DNA from: a phage
Direction: 5' to 3' (one strand)
Sequence record: PZ379176.1
DNA length: 64,000 bases
Positions 2,319-42,660 of this stretch are shown piece by piece. The number at the start of each line of letters is the position of its first letter. Position 1 is the stretch's first letter. A model generated the notes under the pieces. That model was not told the origin of the DNA and made no database searches. It was given only the letters and a program-made list of their open reading frames with translations. Made by a program: the position numbers and the translations under genes.

Positions 2319-3191
2319 ATGTCTAAAGTAGCGATTAACCACTTGAACAAAGCAAACGAAAGCCTTTCCTCTTTAGGCTTAACCGTTGGTAGTCCTGATG
2401 CGTGGATGGAAAACGAAAGTGCACGTAAAGGATTCAAAAACTCTGTAATGCTGGCTTGCTTGATCATTAACTCTACTGCGAACGCTTTACAGTGTGAAGA
2501 TGAAAGCACGTTCAAAGAGAACGGTTTTACCGATATGCAGGACGCTATTAATTGCTACATTCAAGCAAATTTAGATAGCTGGAATCAGAAGGATTGGCCT
2601 GAGTCATGCCGCGATGTGAAAGCTGAATTATCCCGCTTGTCTGTCATGGTTGAAGCATGGAATAAGAAAAACAAGAAACAGCCAATCAAGCCTACCGTTG
2701 CAAGTAAGATTATGAAGTCTGTTAATCTGGCAAGTTATGCACTGGTTGCAGCGATCGGTGTTAGTGCACTGGTCACATCTCTTTCTGATAAAGCTATCGC
2801 TAGTTCTACTCCTGCAACTGATGCCGCTAGTGTCTTCTCTAGTTCCATCAATAAGGGTTGGATGATTTGCAACGGTGCGGATAGTGATGGAAGTACTATT
2901 GTATTAAAAATGAAGTTTAGCAACGTAACTAATGATGGCGTTCTCTTTCAGTCTAAGACACTAGACAATCAGCCTAACAATGATCTAGTTCTCAAGCGCA
3001 CCGATAGTGACTCGGATATGGTTACATTTGGCACTGTACAACGTTACGAAGACGTTAAAGCTGTAACCAATCTAGTGAGTTATGGCCCGATCAATGAGTC
3101 GATGATTGCTACCACTGTTTACAATAACGCTAATAACGCTGTTTATACCGTTCACGTTAGTTTAGCCAACTGTATTAAGGCTAGTAAGTAA
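2319..3191 (+). CDS. hypothetical early protein with one internal hydrophobic helix
   Basis: ORF track; ATG preceded by AAGGAA; hydrophobic stretch LASYALVAAIGVSALVTSL. Confidence 0.6.
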   Translation: MSKVAINHLNKANESLSSLGLTVGSPDAWMENESARKGFKNSVMLACLIINSTANALQCEDESTFKENGFTDMQDAINCYIQANLDSWNQKDWPESCRDVKAELSRLSVMVEAWNKKNKKQPIKPTVASKIMKSVNLASYALVAAIGVSALVTSLSDKAIASSTPATDAASVFSSSINKGWMICNGADSDGSTIVLKMKFSNVTNDGVLFQSKTLDNQPNNDLVLKRTDSDSDMVTFGTVQRYEDVKAVTNLVSYGPINESMIATTVYNNANNAVYTVHVSLANCIKASK

Positions 3192-3216
3192 ATAACCTAT
3201 TTTCAGGAGTGTAAAA

Positions 3217-3483
3217 ATGGCTATCAAAGAAGTTAAGTTATCAAACGGCTTTTCTTGTTTTGTTGGTGGGCAATCTATCGAGTTTAATACACTTGATGGT
3301 CAGATAATCTTGCCTGTTATCACTTTTTGCAGGATGGAATATCAGCCTCTTAAAGATTGGCTAGCCTTTGCTGATTTCGAAATTACCCGCGATGATTTCA
3401 GATCAATCTATATTGACGGTGATTTGTCGCTGGCTAACCTGCTTAATCATGGTCTGATTGGGGATGATACCAATGGGAAATGA
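3217..3483 (+). CDS. hypothetical protein (88 aa)
   Basis: ORF track; SD-like AGGAG upstream. Confidence 0.5.
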   Translation: MAIKEVKLSNGFSCFVGGQSIEFNTLDGQIILPVITFCRMEYQPLKDWLAFADFEITRDDFRSIYIDGDLSLANLLNHGLIGDDTNGK

Positions 3484-3733
3484 AACTATTGCGTTAATTG
3501 ATACGCATAATTACGGTGGCGTTACATTGTCCTTTGATGAATCAGTCGACGCTGGTTATTTGTCTTTTCTTTCTAAAGGTGAGATACAAAACATACGCTT
3601 TCCTATTGTCTGTTTAGTGCAAGATTATCTAACTGTTGGGAAGTATTTAGCCCAACGCGGGATTCTCCTGTCGCTGGAAGAAGTGGAACAGATTAGCGTA
3701 GCATTTTTTGGCGAGAATAGCAACGATGAATAG
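3464..3733 (+). CDS. hypothetical protein
   Basis: ORF track frame; ATG at 3464 or 3473 overlapping previous stop. Confidence 0.45.
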   Translation: MIPMGNETIALIDTHNYGGVTLSFDESVDAGYLSFLSKGEIQNIRFPIVCLVQDYLTVGKYLAQRGILLSLEEVEQISVAFFGENSNDE

Positions 3734-3828
3734 TGATTATTTTTGGCGTTGCTTGTTTGGTGCGACCTTCCTGCTGTTCATTGCTGATATGCTGTATTCT
3801 TACATTCTCTAACTAAAGGTTTATTATC

Positions 3829-4194
3829 ATGGGTGTTATCAAGTTTGTAGTGAAAGTATTTGTAGGCTTCTTTCTGGTTGTTCTCCTGTTAGGTGTCCTG
3901 CTGTCATCTATGGGTAGCGTTAAGGCTGCAACATTCTCCCCTGATACGGTTGACGGTTTACAGTGTACCTATCTCGTAGAGAATTACGAAACTGGTAAAC
4001 AGTCACCTAAAGTTATTATTTTGCATGTAAATGATTTTGATCATGTGCAATCAGATAACAAAGCTATTCTGCTGGTAAATGAAACTACCGGTAAACAAAT
4101 CACGATAGATCACTTGATGCGCTCATCGTTGACGCTCTTTGATGAGTCCATGAATGAAATTGAGTCCGGTAATGGTCAATGTGTAAATCCATAG
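3829..4194 (+). CDS. predicted secreted or membrane protein (N-terminal hydrophobic signal-like segment)
   Basis: N-terminus MGVIKFVVKVFVGFFLVVLLLGVLLSSMGSVKA; SD AAAGG upstream. Confidence 0.55.
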   Translation: MGVIKFVVKVFVGFFLVVLLLGVLLSSMGSVKAATFSPDTVDGLQCTYLVENYETGKQSPKVIILHVNDFDHVQSDNKAILLVNETTGKQITIDHLMRSSLTLFDESMNEIESGNGQCVNP

Positions 4195-4470
4195 GCTTAA
4201 TCTTTCTCCTGTATTGTGCCGTAGTCATGCCTATGGTCATAATCTATCTGATGCTTTAAATCCTTCCTATAAGCCTCGCTATGAGGCTTTTTCTTTTCTA
4301 AGGTGATTGTATACCTTACTCCCTTTTAGCTCATTGTGATGCGTTATAGGCCGCTTGTTATCGCTTTACAAGCCTTTTCCTATGATGTATCACGTTCGCC
4401 CGCTCTTTTACCTTCCTATAGTGAAAAAGTTTAAAATATTTTGTTTTACCCTATTGCATCCCTCACTGAT

Positions 4471-4479
4471 TAATGTATA
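4471..4479 (+). promoter_or_regulatory. TAATGTATA motif (candidate phage-specific promoter element)
   Basis: Exact 9-mer also found upstream of genes at 36225, 42593 and on the minus strand at 52425-52433. Confidence 0.35.
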
Positions 4480-4579
4480 CTTCATTTCATCGGGTACGAT
4501 GTAAAACATACAAGGCAAGGAAACTTGCCCCGCTCTTTAAAAATCAGGCTAGAAAGTGAAAATATTCTTAAAAAGAGTA

Positions 4580-4608
4580 TTGACACCGAAAACAGCCTGA
4601 TATATAGT
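4580..4608 (+). promoter_or_regulatory. sigma70-like promoter (TTGACA-N17-TATAGT)
   Basis: Near-consensus -35 and -10 hexamers with 17-nt spacer, inside a 2-kb ORF-poor region. Confidence 0.6.
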
Positions 4609-5212
4609 GAGCATAGTCAGCGATGACTTAAAAAATCCCGCTCTTTAAAAATATGATTTGTCTTACGGGTGGCGGCGACGTCATTACTATAAGGCGCTCA
4701 GTTAATCGGTAGAATTGATTCCTGATTCATACGTGACGCAGGCGGACAATAAGCAATATCAATAAGCCTTATTTGTTCGATACTTTCAAAAGATTAATGC
4801 TTGAAAGCGCACTAGATTCCCTGAAAGACAAATCAGACTTATCATCTTGCCCTTTCGCATAGATTCACGCGAGATAAGGGAAAGGAATTAAAAGAAGATG
4901 ATAAAAAGAGTTGCAAACGTGGTTAAAGTAGTCCATACTAACCACAAGTTAGCAAAACATCGCTAACTAGTTCCCAAATCAACGTATCGCGGGAAAGGTG
5001 GCACATAGTGCAGCGATTAGTTCAGGTGTAGGCGGCCTGTTAATGAATCAGTAAGCCTTCAATGTGACAGTGATTAGCAGACACTTTAAAAGGCTAAACG
5101 CTCTTTAACAATATGAGTCATAAGTTAAGCCTCACCGCTTAATCTTCAATCAAATAAAGCTGATTGATATATCCTCCCAATAGCGGGAACGACGAAAAAG
5201 ATTAAAAAGCGG

Positions 5213-5241
5213 TTGACAGCGAAAACAACATGATTCATAAT
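5213..5241 (+). promoter_or_regulatory. sigma70-like promoter (TTGACA-N17-CATAAT)
   Basis: Near-consensus hexamers; spacer shares CGAAAAC with the 4580 promoter. Confidence 0.6.
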
Positions 5242-6162
5242 GAGCACTCACTAAGCAAATCATCGCTTCAGTGAAAAGCGTAACAACGGCTAACAGTTGC
5301 ATAGTGTGAGAAAGCACACTGATAGATTTACCGCTCTTTAATAATTTAAACATTCTCCTATATCGGTTGAATATGCTTGATGATAATAACCATCGGAAAG
5401 CATACCAGATAAAACGGCGTAAAACTCCCTAAATTATCAGGGTAAACAGTTTTACATTCCCTTACTGGAAACGTCACCATTGATAAACGGATTCATTGAG
5501 TACACGCAAAGACTTAAGCTAATCGCCCACGGTTAAGGGTAGCGGCGGTCATCGCTAACATGGTGCTACGGTGAAAGAAGTTAATCAGGGTAGGCAATCC
5601 CGACGAATTAACGCTCAATTGAGAGCGGCGGTGAATGGTTAAAAAGTGGCAAATTGCTATTTAACAATAAGGTTTAGTGTGAACGTTTACGATGTGAACG
5701 GCTTGAGATTCATCTTATGATGAAAGTACATAGTCGGTTTATGTAGTAAACTTGCCGAAAGATATAAAACGTCGGAACATTAGACGGTCAATGACTCTTT
5801 CGCAATAGTATCCCGTAGTGGGCGATGACTAGCGATTGAGAGTTGATATAAAAGGATAGGCGAGAGCGAAAGCAAAGTAAACGATATTGCCGACGGTTAC
5901 AATAACGTAACTAATTAGAGTCGGACGCACTGCCTTATTGTGATGATTGATCATCGCTATCAGGTCGGCTTCGTTTATAGCGACTAATTAAAGATACCAG
6001 ATGAAACATCACGGATAAGGGGGCGGCAAGGTTAACTCCTGATAAGACCGCCCCGCTTACCTATAACTACTTACAATGAGTGGTTATAGTTAAGTCAATA
6101 GTGACTTGAATTGCTCATAGAGAGCGGGGCAATAGCGCCCTTACAATTGAAAGGTGAATATT

Positions 6163-7062
6163 ATGGCTAAAATCTTTACTCTGGTTAACGAATCTGGTTT
6201 TAATGCTCTGGCTAACAATATCCGTAGCAATAATGCAGCGATCAAACAAGATGTTTCTAACTTCCTGTTAGGTCATTTGCAGCACTTTCGTAGCAACGGT
6301 AAGAAGTTAGATGTATTGCAGGCGGCGGTTGACTTCCTGTTAACCGAACGTTTCCGCGATATGGATGTTATTGCCACCGCGATCACTTTCTTAACTCCTA
6401 TCAAGTTTAACACTGATGCGTCAAATGGTCGTAAGAAGTGGATTAATCTGGAAGGTGAAGCGAAAGCTAAAGAAGATGCGAAAGAAGCGCAAATTAAAGC
6501 CAAAATGGAGCAAAACCGTGCCCGCTGGTCAAACGCTTTCGAAAACTTTGCATTAGGTCGTGCAATTGAAGTGGATAATCCTAACTTCTACAAAGGTTGC
6601 AATGACAACGTGGCGGCACACCTGCAAATTCCGGCGAAAAACAAGGAAGATTTTAATCAGGATATTTACGCTTTGGTTGAACGCTTGAATGCAATCCGTA
6701 TTGAAGCCAAATTACTGGCTGATGAGCGCAACGGCGCAACCAGCGATAACACTATCGCCCTGAGTGAAGAAGTTGGGAAGGTTAAAAAGTCCTTTGATTC
6801 ACTCATCAAGAAAATCACGGCCTCGACGGTAGCGATCTCGGATGATTATCTGATGAACGCATCAAGCAAGGAATTAGAATCACTCGATTCATACGCTGAT
6901 GAAATGGAAAAGACTGTTGCAGCTATGCAGGAGAAGTTAGAAAGTCTGCGCGGTCGTATCTCTTCAACGGTTGCTACCCGTACCGAACAAGCGGCGAAAG
7001 CAGAAGAGGAAGAAGTATTGCGTAAAGCGGCTGAAATTATGGCGGCACGTCAGGCGGCATAA
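6163..7062 (+). CDS. hypothetical protein, coiled-coil rich (about 300 aa)
   Basis: ORF track frame; ATG at 6163 with SD AAAGGTGA. Confidence 0.6.
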   Translation: MAKIFTLVNESGFNALANNIRSNNAAIKQDVSNFLLGHLQHFRSNGKKLDVLQAAVDFLLTERFRDMDVIATAITFLTPIKFNTDASNGRKKWINLEGEAKAKEDAKEAQIKAKMEQNRARWSNAFENFALGRAIEVDNPNFYKGCNDNVAAHLQIPAKNKEDFNQDIYALVERLNAIRIEAKLLADERNGATSDNTIALSEEVGKVKKSFDSLIKKITASTVAISDDYLMNASSKELESLDSYADEMEKTVAAMQEKLESLRGRISSTVATRTEQAAKAEEEEVLRKAAEIMAARQAA

Positions 7063-7085
7063 GTAAGACAATTTGAATAAACATA

Positions 7086-7119
7086 AGGCGCTATCTTAAC
7101 GGGTAGCGCCTTTTCTTTT
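7086..7119 (+). terminator. rho-independent terminator
   Basis: Stem AGGCGCTA/TAGCGCCT followed by TTTCTTTT. Confidence 0.6.
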
Positions 7120-7167
7120 ATCAGTGCATTGATTCAGTGCATTAATCAAAGAATTTAATCAAAGGTG

Positions 7168-8332: not shown

Positions 8333-8413
8333 TAGGAATATAGCCCCCTCTTTTAGTACTATGACGCTCTTTCTGTAGCGTCGTGCCCTCTCCCCATTTG
8401 AAGCTTCTGCATA

Positions 8414-8435
8414 GCCGCCTTTGGGCGGCTTTTTG
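8414..8435 (+). terminator. rho-independent terminator
   Basis: GCCGCC-TTTG-GGCGGC then TTTTT. Confidence 0.6.
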
Positions 8436-8442
8436 CGTTACC

Positions 8443-8466
8443 GCCTCCTTAATTGGAGGCTTTTTT
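8443..8466 (+). terminator. rho-independent terminator (second of tandem pair)
   Basis: GCCTCC-ttaatt-GGAGGC then TTTTTT. Confidence 0.6.
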
Positions 8467-11972: not shown

Positions 11973-11984
11973 CAAATAAAGAGA

Positions 11985-12014
11985 GGCTGCCTTCGGGCGG
12001 CCTTTGTTGTTTTA
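11985..12014 (+). terminator. rho-independent terminator
   Basis: GGCTGCC-ttcg-GGCGGCC then TTTGTTGTTTT; same type as 41053. Confidence 0.6.
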
Positions 12015-12883: not shown

Positions 12884-12959
12884 GCGCTCTTAGCTCAATG
12901 GATAGAGCAGTAGCCTTCTAAGCTATTGGTTACAGGTTCGAGTCCTGTAGGGCGCACCA
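12884..12959 (+). tRNA. tRNA-Arg (anticodon UCU), CCA encoded
   Basis: Manual cloverleaf: acceptor GCGCTCT/AGGGCGC, D-arm GCTC/GAGC, anticodon loop CTTCTAA, T-arm ACAGG-TTCGAGT-CCTGT, discriminator A + CCA. Confidence 0.85.
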
Positions 12960-42345: not shown

Positions 42346-42592
42346 TTAATATTCTTTTAAATAGAGAATCAAAGTCCCTAGGAGTCCCTACAACCTAAAT
42401 CAAGGATTCCTTAATTCTCTATTTTTATCTCGCAGGTGGCTCCTGCCCTTCGGTACTTGCAAGGGATTCTGTGAATTGCCCAATATACAAGCCTGCAATA
42501 ACTTTATCAGCTATACAATATATACATTACTAGTGTGTTATATCTACTACCAAAGATACTTATATTATATAGTACTCTTATCGGTATAAGCG

Positions 42593-42601
42593 TAATGTAT
42601 A
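42593..42601 (+). promoter_or_regulatory. TAATGTATA motif (candidate phage-specific promoter element)
   Basis: Exact 9-mer 60 nt upstream of ATG 42661; inverted copy at 42521-42529. Confidence 0.4.
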
Positions 42602-42660
42602 CTATACATAACCGCTCAAAGAGAGCAACAATCTTTCAAATTAAATAAGGAAATTAAAAT

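Follow-up and report, generated by a model that had tools for sequence, protein, structure and literature searches.

The coliphage phiEco32 is a model for phage control of the host RNA polymerase, with its sigma factor gp36 and its sigma70 inhibitor gp79, and a “spacer with three promoters” that makes up about 2.5% of its genome has remained without annotation. We analysed the equivalent spacer in a 64,000-nucleotide (nt) stretch of phage DNA (record PZ379176.1), the whole of which is called the window in the following. The source genome belongs to the Kuravirus group (phiEco32-like coliphages; subfamily Gordonclarkvirinae), and its spacer (positions 4195-6162, 1,968 bp) is flanked by homologues of phi32_125 and phi32_124, the latter referred to as gp124. 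We consider it probable that this spacer forms the head of the main early operon, transcribed but not translated, and that it is organised like a ribosomal RNA (rrn) operon of the host, with tandem early promoters, repeated boxA signals and a large structured RNA.

The early sigma70 promoters of the spacer, the biology of boxA and the boxA of phage T7 are already known. Long untranslated transcripts are natural targets of Rho, rrn-type complexes are effective against Rho and poor against intrinsic terminators, and GOLLD and ROOL are large structured non-coding RNAs that are associated with phages. Three sigma70 promoters of the early class and a terminator after the upstream gene have been described for the spacer of phiEco32 and SU10 (PMC4281155). 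It has also been reported that boxA protects untranslated CRISPR arrays from premature Rho termination (PMC7665894), and the rrn complex is described as an RNA-folding chaperone (PMC8632103). The dissociation constant (Kd) of NusB:NusE is 5-8 nM for the rrn BoxA and 80-90 nM for the lambda type, and the C-to-A change of boxA16 weakens binding about 40-fold (PMC2800207). The kuravirus genome papers contain no discussion of the non-coding region, and neither boxAs in phiEco32-like phages nor the large RNA were found in our literature search, which excluded the phiEco32 papers Savalia 2008 and Pavlova 2012.

Promoters and boxA signals of a non-coding spacer

The first-pass annotation, made from the sequence of the window, had listed several iterated motifs in the spacer, among them four copies of CGCTCTTTAA[A/C/T]AAT. 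All four are exact (4531, 4639, 5099 and 5332), located on the + strand and confined to the spacer within the window, and their number is far above chance: a scan of the 64 kb with up to one mismatch retrieved six matches against an expectation of 0.81±0.79, a value that none of 100 shuffles reached. The listing of these copies was right, but it missed both the large structured RNA described below and the identity of the motif, which equals the boxA of the E. coli rrn operons, the loading site of NusB/NusE. The rrnH operon of E. coli K-12, which was compared directly, has the leader boxA TGCTCTTTAACAAT and the 16S-23S spacer boxA TGCTCTTTAAAAAT. Judged by the E. coli consensus GCUCUUUAACAA, the four sites are of the rrn type and read GCTCTTTAA[A/C/T]AAT, whereas a fifth copy at 5655 departs from it. 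The signals of the spacer are, in order of position:

4271-4299, + strand: intrinsic terminator closing the upstream unit (AAGCCTCGCTATGAGGCTT then TTTCTTTTCT), recognised from the sequence and annotated in the SU10, SU7 and 4E8 records
4471-4479, + strand: TAATGTATA, the exact consensus of the phiEco32 gp36-sigma middle/late promoters, one of five exact copies in the window
4514-4529, + strand: hairpin GGCAAG-GAAA-CTTGCC directly 5' of boxA1 in a boxB-like position; other phages have unrelated hairpins here
4531-4544, + strand: boxA1, CGCTCTTTAAAAAT, matching the E. coli rrnH 16S-23S spacer boxA
4580-4608, + strand: putative sigma70 early promoter P1, TTGACA-17-TATAGT, with an A-rich tract upstream and a predicted start at about 4615
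4615-4628, + strand: 5'-terminal hairpin AGTCA-GCGA-TGACT, with a compensatory change in relatives (ATTCA-GCGA-TGAAT)
4639-4652, + strand: boxA2, CGCTCTTTAAAAAT
4653-4836, + strand: module A, an optional structured RNA domain of about 190 nt with the closing stem ATGATTTGTCTT/AAGACAAATCA, absent from many relatives
4911-4939, + strand: candidate weak third promoter Px, TTGCAA-17-CATACT, 8/12 consensus positions, with the same A-rich upstream tract
4947-4968, + strand: hairpin AGTTAGC-AAAACATC-GCTAACT after Px, paralogous to the hairpin that follows P2
5099-5112, + strand: boxA3, CGCTCTTTAACAAT, matching the core of the E. coli rrnH leader boxA
5213-5241, + strand: putative sigma70 early promoter P2, TTGACA-17-CATAAT, with a predicted start at about 5248
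5302-5321, + strand: hairpin 5' of boxA4 with five covarying stems (AGTGTG/CACACT, AGCGTG/CACGCT, AACGTG/CACGTT, GAGGTG/CACCTC, GAAGTG/CACTTC)
5332-5345, + strand: boxA4, CGCTCTTTAATAAT, whose core CCGCTCTTTAA is invariant in 20 aligned sequences
5655-5668, + strand: boxA-like TGCTATTTAACAAT, a one-mismatch copy (GCTATTTAACAAT), near-invariant in close relatives and predicted to be paired (5644-5662; 5664-5673/5932-5941)

The arrangement of the 5' half is readily retraced. The terminator at 4271 is followed by the gp36-type motif (4471), a hairpin and boxA1, then by P1, a hairpin, boxA2 and module A, then by Px (about 4911) with its hairpin and boxA3, and finally by P2, two hairpins and boxA4. 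A promoter or promoter-like motif precedes each of the four boxA copies; the distance from the predicted start is about 25 nt between P1 and boxA2 and about 85 nt between P2 and boxA4.

The first-pass annotation had also proposed two near-consensus promoters with related spacers at 4580 and 5213, and both held: each agrees with the consensus at 11 of 12 positions, and the two are paralogous (82% identity over 34 nt). P2 is present in nearly all mapped relatives. Promoter-like matches are not above chance in the region (8 versus 9.5±2.9 expected), and P1 and P2 are distinguished by their quality and conservation. The hexamers, the 17-nt spacing, the conservation and the report for the family all point to sigma70 early promoters at these two sites. 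The copy of TAATGTATA that had been noted alongside them is exact and kept only in part of the clade. Promoters of the gp36 sigma factor, whose consensus is taken from PMC4331800 and PMC4281155, are recognised by a conserved tAATGTATA 6-8 nt upstream of the start, and the exact motif at 4471 is limited to the lineage of the window, Bas90, ECBP2 and KBNP1711. In phiEco32, SU10, WFI101126 and EK010, a third sigma70 promoter is found just upstream of the position equivalent to 4471 (TTGACA is present, the -10 box was read by eye). Where phiEco32 has this third promoter, the -35 box has been lost from the phage investigated here, with TAATGTATA in the vicinity. Gp36-type motifs also cluster on both strands far away at 42512-42611, with TAATGTATA at 42521 (- strand) and 42593 (+ strand) and two one-mismatch copies; this cluster looks like a divergent middle/late promoter region.

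Conservation of the motif in relatives, suggested earlier as a check, proved to be extensive: boxA is kept in all 19 mapped Kuravirus-group relatives and in nine distant loci. Five or six copies are present in 18 of these 19 phages and four in SU10, always on the + strand. The boxAs are conserved while their flanks vary; the intervening modules have been exchanged, duplicated or lost among the 19 relatives, and the sequences of the upstream hairpins differ between phages. The presence of a boxB-like hairpin 5' of boxA is nevertheless the usual case, documented by a mean minimum free energy of -5.4 kcal/mol at 126 sites (77 contexts) compared with -3.5 kcal/mol for random 33-mers of the spacer (p=6e-10) and by the covariation of the stem before boxA4. 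The distance between boxA4 and the ATG of gp124 is 828-830 nt in kuraviruses and suseptimaviruses. The boxA-like copy at 5655 carries a C-to-A change equivalent to that of lambda boxA16; because of this change and its predicted base pairing it was not counted as a Nus site, and its role is probably structural. Another segment that resembles a degenerate boxA, GACTCTTTCGCAAT at 5792-5806, lies within predicted helices and is conserved in nearly all aligned relatives; GACTCTTTAACAAT occupies a comparable place in the leader of PJNS034, an unclassified phage of 65 kb.

Module A is an example of the mosaic structure of the 5' half. The GU-rich run TGTCTTACGGGTGG that follows boxA2, where the rrn operons have their G/U-rich boxC, is the 5' strand of its stem. 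The module is present between the two boxAs of PJNS034, with compensatory changes in the closing stem, and is not shown in the Pantoea phage TacPo2. In relatives without it (L003, L009 and L017) the deletion starts immediately 3' of boxA2 (4652/4841 junction), and the repeated boxAs with their flanks seem to be recombination joints that shuffle promoter modules between phages. The variation in the blocks 4841-5250 is too low for a test of structure, and their fold energies are -47 kcal/mol in forward and -49 kcal/mol in reverse orientation.

The spacer as a whole is matched by about 99 records of Escherichia and Shigella phages from the Kuravirus group, with an identity of 99.9% to Shigella phage ShigP1 and 93% to phiEco32, and it is unannotated in nearly all records of the group. 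The first-pass annotation had described it as an ORF-poor region of two kilobases, which is in accordance with our analysis: the longest open reading frame (ORF) inside 4195-6162 comprises 67 amino acids (aa) and is located on the minus strand. For an independent view, the spacer and the next gene were aligned from 19 relatives and the variable sites were assigned to codon positions in 180-nt windows. A 3-nt periodicity is absent from every window of the spacer (all p>0.2) and begins at 6163, where the coding sequence 6163-7062 shows 86/56/251 variable sites by codon position (p=3e-37). Since there are short ORFs only and periodicity is absent until 6163, the spacer is truly non-coding. Genes for tRNA or tmRNA are likewise missing within the spacer, and its GC content equals that of the flanks without an AT-rich dip.

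A large structured RNA and its neighbourhood

The most conserved part of the spacer is its 3' kilobase. The stretch 5095-6162 is free of insertions and deletions and has an identity of about 0.90 across relatives versus about 0.86 for the gp124 coding sequence; the stretch 4195-5094 is a mosaic with insertions and deletions. The consensus structure of the segment 5345-6141 was established with RNAalifold on 20 sequences of close relatives and comprises 239 base pairs over about 0.8 kb, 77 of them with compensatory double changes. Among the cells of the alignment that belong to these pairs, 99.1% can pair, compared with 93.8±0.2% in shuffles and 33-46% with slid partners, and the 77 double-change pairs contrast with 32.6±3.4 in shuffles (reached in 0 of 500) and 9-14 with slid partners. 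The 800-nt core folds with z=-5.8 relative to shuffles, and 97.5-99.2% of the pairs are kept in 12 held-out close relatives. The fold energy is -242 kcal/mol for the + strand and -165 kcal/mol for the reverse complement. The paired cells contain 524 G.U but 14 A.C combinations; G.U is tolerated and A.C is not, and selection therefore acts on the + strand RNA rather than on the DNA. The RNA structure is real and belongs to the + strand. An early non-coding RNA locus had been one of three functions envisaged by the first-pass annotation, and this one is supported: the region is non-coding, lies behind sigma70 promoters that have been described as early ones in phiEco32 and SU10, and encodes a covarying + strand RNA structure. 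Its parts are:

5345-5643, + strand: domain I with closing helix 5345-5358/5630-5643, which is 92% paired and has 16 compensatory cells in distant relatives
5541-5549, + strand: AGCGGCGGT, copy 1, in an invariant segment of domain I
5624-5632, + strand: AGCGGCGGT, copy 2, adjoining the hairpin 5612-5627
5664-5941, + strand: domain II with closing helix 5664-5673/5932-5941 and the supported helices 5684-5690/5877-5883, 5699-5736, 5751-5756/5859-5864 and 5890-5924
5942-6141, + strand: 3' row of covarying hairpins (5942-5955, 5963-5985, 6020-6054, 6061-6089, 6091-6108, 6113-6125, 6126-6141)
6151-6165, + strand: Shine-Dalgarno sequence (AAGGTG) and ATG of gp124, where codon periodicity starts

Of the “several” [A/T]GCGGCGG[T/C] motifs mentioned earlier, two copies are exact (5541 and 5624) and the others are looser matches. 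These two are the only exact copies in the whole window (0.30 expected), and at least two were obtained in 4 of 100 shuffles. A candidate long-range pairing between the 5' flank of boxA4 (ATTTACC) and the Shine-Dalgarno sequence of gp124 (GGTGAAT) was also proposed by RNAalifold. Close relatives keep it with a G.U-to-A-U change; in distant relatives it is only 62% paired with two compensatory cells and inconsistent duplexes.

A comparison with Rfam (cmscan of 3500-7000, both strands, 4227 families, E<=1) returned only a chance match to 5.8S in the upstream gene and thus none to GOLLD, ROOL, 6S, group I/II introns, tmRNA or RNase P; a comparison with 5,426 E. coli genomes yielded no counterpart of the large RNA. 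By these sequence comparisons the large RNA is classified as a new family. Its phylogenetic range was explored with a gp124 protein search, which retrieved nine loci on uncultivated contigs with homologues of 47-70% identity. A gene-free stretch precedes the gp124 homologue in all seven loci with sufficient upstream sequence, the other two being truncated upstream; it measures about 3 kb without a called gene in five loci, and in two it is about 1.4 kb long and follows a few small called genes. The five loci with the long gap are L042, L043, L045, L047 and L052 (from about 560-980 to 4000), on contigs of up to 96 kb, and L049 and L051 belong to this uncultivated clade as well. Roughly the first 1.5 kb of the long gap precede the first boxA. 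Perfect rrn-type boxAs on the + strand are present in all nine. Eight of them have two or three copies at about 870-936, 1100-1146 and 1350-1500 nt from the start codon of the gp124 homologue, and the 5'-truncated locus L050 has a single one at 887 nt. The four loci that were inspected for it harbor an individual hairpin before each boxA and TTGACA promoter motifs upstream.

The RNA itself was detected in all four distant loci searched (nhmmer E 1e-103 to 1e-22). In a profile alignment of all nine loci that is based on sequence only, 72-86% of the 239 pairs are kept versus 31-47% in slid controls, with 14-59 compensatory changes per locus. Many of the same pairs were recovered when four distant sequences were folded singly; the consensus fold from these four alone is sparse, with 81 pairs, 21 of which are identical to the main structure. 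Two perfect boxAs and a consensus promoter also stand in the spacer of PJNS034, which is free of ORFs, and a single perfect boxA in that of TacPo2; the large RNA is absent from both, which show boxA matches only. Their ORF-free spacers (PJNS034, L020, 3000-4821; TacPo2, L040, 1500-3123) are 1.6-1.8 kb long and 72% identical to each other, the two genomes being E. coli and Pantoea phages of about 65 kb, and the leader of PJNS034 extends for about 480 nt past the last promoter. Salmonella phage 7-11 has no boxA at the early end.

The constant partner of the RNA is gp124, which is restricted to the same clade and always adjacent. It has no Pfam domain above the curated cut-off and falls into a PHROG of unknown function; its AlphaFold model has a predicted local distance difference test score of 70, no fold match in the PDB (best E=1.9) and no hint of RNA binding. 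Two further regulatory sites frame the locus:

2247-2275, + strand: sigma70-type promoter TTGACA-17-TATAGT of the first small early unit, found by a regular-expression map and conserved in relatives, with no boxA after it
7085-7122, + strand: strong intrinsic terminator, a 12-bp stem followed by TTCTTTTATC, 23 nt past the gp124 stop codon and annotated in relatives

The first small early unit consists of the phi32_128-125 homologues (2319-4194). Genes are oriented on the minus strand before about 2000 and on the plus strand from 2319 onwards, with the consensus promoter at 2247 between them. The gene-128 end of phiEco32 is the right end of its linear genome, and the window therefore seems to cross the physical genome ends, as in a permuted or concatemer-derived assembly. 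The 121-aa protein of this unit (3829-4194) carries a hydrophobic, signal-like segment at the N-terminus and bears the label “terminase” in PHROGs and in several GenBank records, and the 88-aa protein (3217-3483) is labelled “polymerase”; for small early proteins both labels look like annotation artefacts. Downstream, the + strand terminators of the early operon begin at 7085 and continue at 8413-8430 and 8443-8460 (tandem pair included) and 11982-12005; terminator-like sites number 34 on the + strand between 6100 and 26000, compared with 13.4±3.9 expected. A single tRNA-Arg(TCT) gene is located at 12884-12959, as reported for phiEco32-like phages.

A possible antitermination unit and its rivals

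The organisation of the spacer suggests the following course of events. Host sigma70 RNA polymerase would start at two or three tandem promoters, namely P1 (4580), the weak Px (about 4911) and P2 (5213), and the nascent RNA would present a hairpin and then an rrn-type boxA (GCUCUUUAA[A/C/U]AAU) about 25-150 nt from each start. NusB-NusE(S10) on boxA, together with NusA and NusG (SuhB and S4 in rrn), may then render the polymerase Rho-resistant and fast-elongating. The modified polymerase would cross 0.9-1.5 kb of ribosome-free RNA, i.e., the optional module A and the RNA 5345-6141, and proceed to gp124 and to the early operon with its many terminators. We infer the Nus loading, the resulting antitermination and the exact start sites from the sequence signals. 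At least 915 nt of the leader are untranslated, and Nus loading at boxA would allow RNA polymerase to resist Rho across this long RNA. A role of the rrn complex as folding chaperone would, by analogy, suit an RNA with helices that span 300 nt.

Several observations weigh against this scheme. BoxA1 is preceded by the lineage-specific gp36-type motif only and boxA3 by a weak putative promoter only, and the fifth boxA copy (5655) has a change that cripples NusB:NusE binding. The leader is rich in G, not in C (GC skew +0.1 to +0.2), and highly structured, and would as such be a poor substrate for Rho. The benefit for the downstream genes is uncertain, because the terminator at 7085 may still stop most transcripts. 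Finally, our literature search, which did not extend to the primary phiEco32 papers, yielded no RNA-seq or 5'-end mapping of any kuravirus spacer.

The boxA array might alternatively act in trans as a decoy or titration region for a host factor, as the first-pass annotation had considered. Transcripts with four high-affinity boxAs of the rrn type instead of the weaker lambda type (5-8 versus 80-90 nM) would soak up NusB/NusE (S10), so that antitermination of the host rrn operons is lost and ribosome synthesis is shut down or resources are freed for the phage. The strong promoters upstream and the retention of five or six boxAs in 18 of 19 mapped relatives agree with such a function, and competition for a host factor by an excess of boxA transcripts has reportedly been observed. 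The part of the earlier proposal that endures is that the iterated motif is a host-factor site. The layout of promoter, boxA and long RNA fits antitermination in cis better: each boxA occupies a cis-acting position soon after a promoter or promoter-like motif and ahead of long untranslated RNA, the distance between the last boxA and gp124 is nearly constant (828-830 nt; 870-936 nt in the distant clade), two or three copies suffice in distant relatives and one in T7, and the conserved 0.8-kb structure would be left unexplained. We regard the decoy as improbable in its own right, although it is compatible with antitermination and the two are not mutually exclusive. Much the same doubt applies to lambda-like nut sites, in which hairpin and boxA would be read by a phage antiterminator, an analogue of N and perhaps a small protein of the 2319-4194 unit, that licenses read-through of terminators. 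Just upstream there is indeed a small immediate-early unit that has a promoter and a terminator to itself, hairpins accompany boxA, and the authors of a study on the related phage 7-11 suspected an undefined antitermination strategy and explicitly left this question open (PMC8948821). The locus is moreover followed by strong intrinsic terminators past gp124, with which Nus factors alone cope poorly. However, the hairpin precedes boxA as in rrn, the order in lambda being boxA and then boxB, and the hairpins and their loops (GAAA, AACGAA, TTA, GAG, GATGTT and others) vary freely between phages, which argues against a sequence-specific reader and makes an N-like phage factor unlikely. The upstream proteins are acidic or of the membrane type and lack both Pfam matches and an obvious arginine-rich motif, and a strong rrn-type boxA needs no N.

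The two remaining rivals concern DNA replication and translation. A replication origin, possibly primed by transcription from the strong promoters, was the third function raised by the first-pass annotation, and the long gene-free region with such promoters and a local dip of the cumulative GC skew at about 4400-5400 could be read in this way; transcription-primed origins adjoin promoters in T7 and T4. Our data speak against it: there are no iterons, tandem repeats or DnaA boxes, the GC content lacks a dip, the skew change is small compared with the larger one near 1800 at the flip of gene orientation, and the sequence is conserved in the manner of a base-paired + strand RNA (G.U tolerated, A.C not). 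We therefore consider an origin very improbable, an origin that overlaps the promoters being conceivable. The opposite expectation, a spacer densely packed with short translated ORFs that gene callers missed, could appeal to the short hypothetical coding sequences annotated in some records (ten in CHD5UKE1, seven in EK5 and one on the minus strand in MN05). Most records annotate nothing here, substitutions obey base-pairing rules, and the lack of a 3-nt periodicity extends to every window, which renders dense coding extremely improbable; a single micro-ORF of fewer than 30 codons may exist.

The antitermination unit that we favour raises the question of what the transcript is for. Its constant length, strict conservation, early and presumably strong expression and constant partnership with gp124 suggest that the large RNA has a function of its own. 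This function may be exerted in cis, on the stability or translation of gp124, or in trans. Our leading guess is that the RNA works together with gp124 or binds a factor of the host, and that the boxAs are there so that it can be produced. It is a tentative proposal, which we hold with less confidence than the operon-like organisation, that the 0.8-kb RNA, together with the optional module A, is the founding member of a new family of large structured non-coding coliphage RNAs and acts in its own right, the whole production line of the rRNA operon (tandem UP-type promoters, boxB/boxA and chaperoning by Nus factors) having been copied for speed and correct folding. Such an RNA might form a ribonucleoprotein with gp124 or, in the early phase of infection, bind or imitate a component of the host, e.g., a factor of defence or RNA metabolism. 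The boxA signals would add antitermination by Nus factors to the programme of a phage group that is known for its control of RNA polymerase, and they would explain how early transcription crosses a long untranslated stretch. The RNA is one of few large structured RNAs with covariation support known in a cultivable and genetically tractable coliphage. The close relatives Bas86, Bas88 and Bas90-93 belong to the BASEL collection, which makes deletion and host-range tests against defined defence systems possible.

Comparison with known systems

The closest parallel to the spacer is found in the leader and spacer of the E. coli rrn operons (boxB hairpin, boxA and boxC; NusB/NusE, NusA, NusG, SuhB and S4). 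Both share the boxA sequence and the order of hairpin and boxA, tandem strong sigma70 promoters with A-rich upstream tracts, the repetition of boxA along the transcript, and a long untranslated structured RNA with long-range helices. The differences are that the phage RNA is non-ribosomal and followed by protein genes, that a boxA stands after each promoter or promoter-like motif, and that the dependence on Nus factors is, for the phage, an assumption by analogy. The early region of T7 resembles the spacer in its tandem strong sigma70 promoters A1-A3 near the genome end, its ORF-free stretch of about 0.9 kb and the subsequent rrn-type boxA CGCTCTTTAACAAT at nt 813. T7 has, however, a single boxA for its three promoters, and its first gene (0.3) follows only about 110 nt after boxA, whereas the phage spacer contains four boxAs and the 0.8-kb structured RNA before the first gene.

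The nutL and nutR sites of lambda likewise combine boxA with a hairpin in the early transcript just past the early promoters, with terminators downstream. They differ in a weaker boxA (CGCUCUUA; Kd 80-90 versus 5-8 nM), in the order of boxA and then boxB, and in a conserved boxB loop that is read by N. In the kuravirus spacer the hairpin sequence is unconserved, and no N-like protein was found among the neighbouring proteins and in the family scans. The boxA of CRISPR arrays (Salmonella and many genera; PMC7665894) also heads a long untranslated transcript and prevents premature termination by Rho, but it is a single boxA at a host locus, whose product is a repeat array and not a folded multi-domain RNA. 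With GOLLD, ROOL and other large bacterial non-coding RNAs, the kuravirus RNA has in common a length of more than 500 nt, many covarying helices including long-range ones, and an occurrence in phages. It is distinguished from them, as far as a comparison by Rfam scan reaches, by its occurrence in coliphages, its fusion to an mRNA and the preceding boxAs. On the basis of these likenesses, the spacer is best classified as a putative rrn-type antitermination unit ahead of a phage non-coding RNA.

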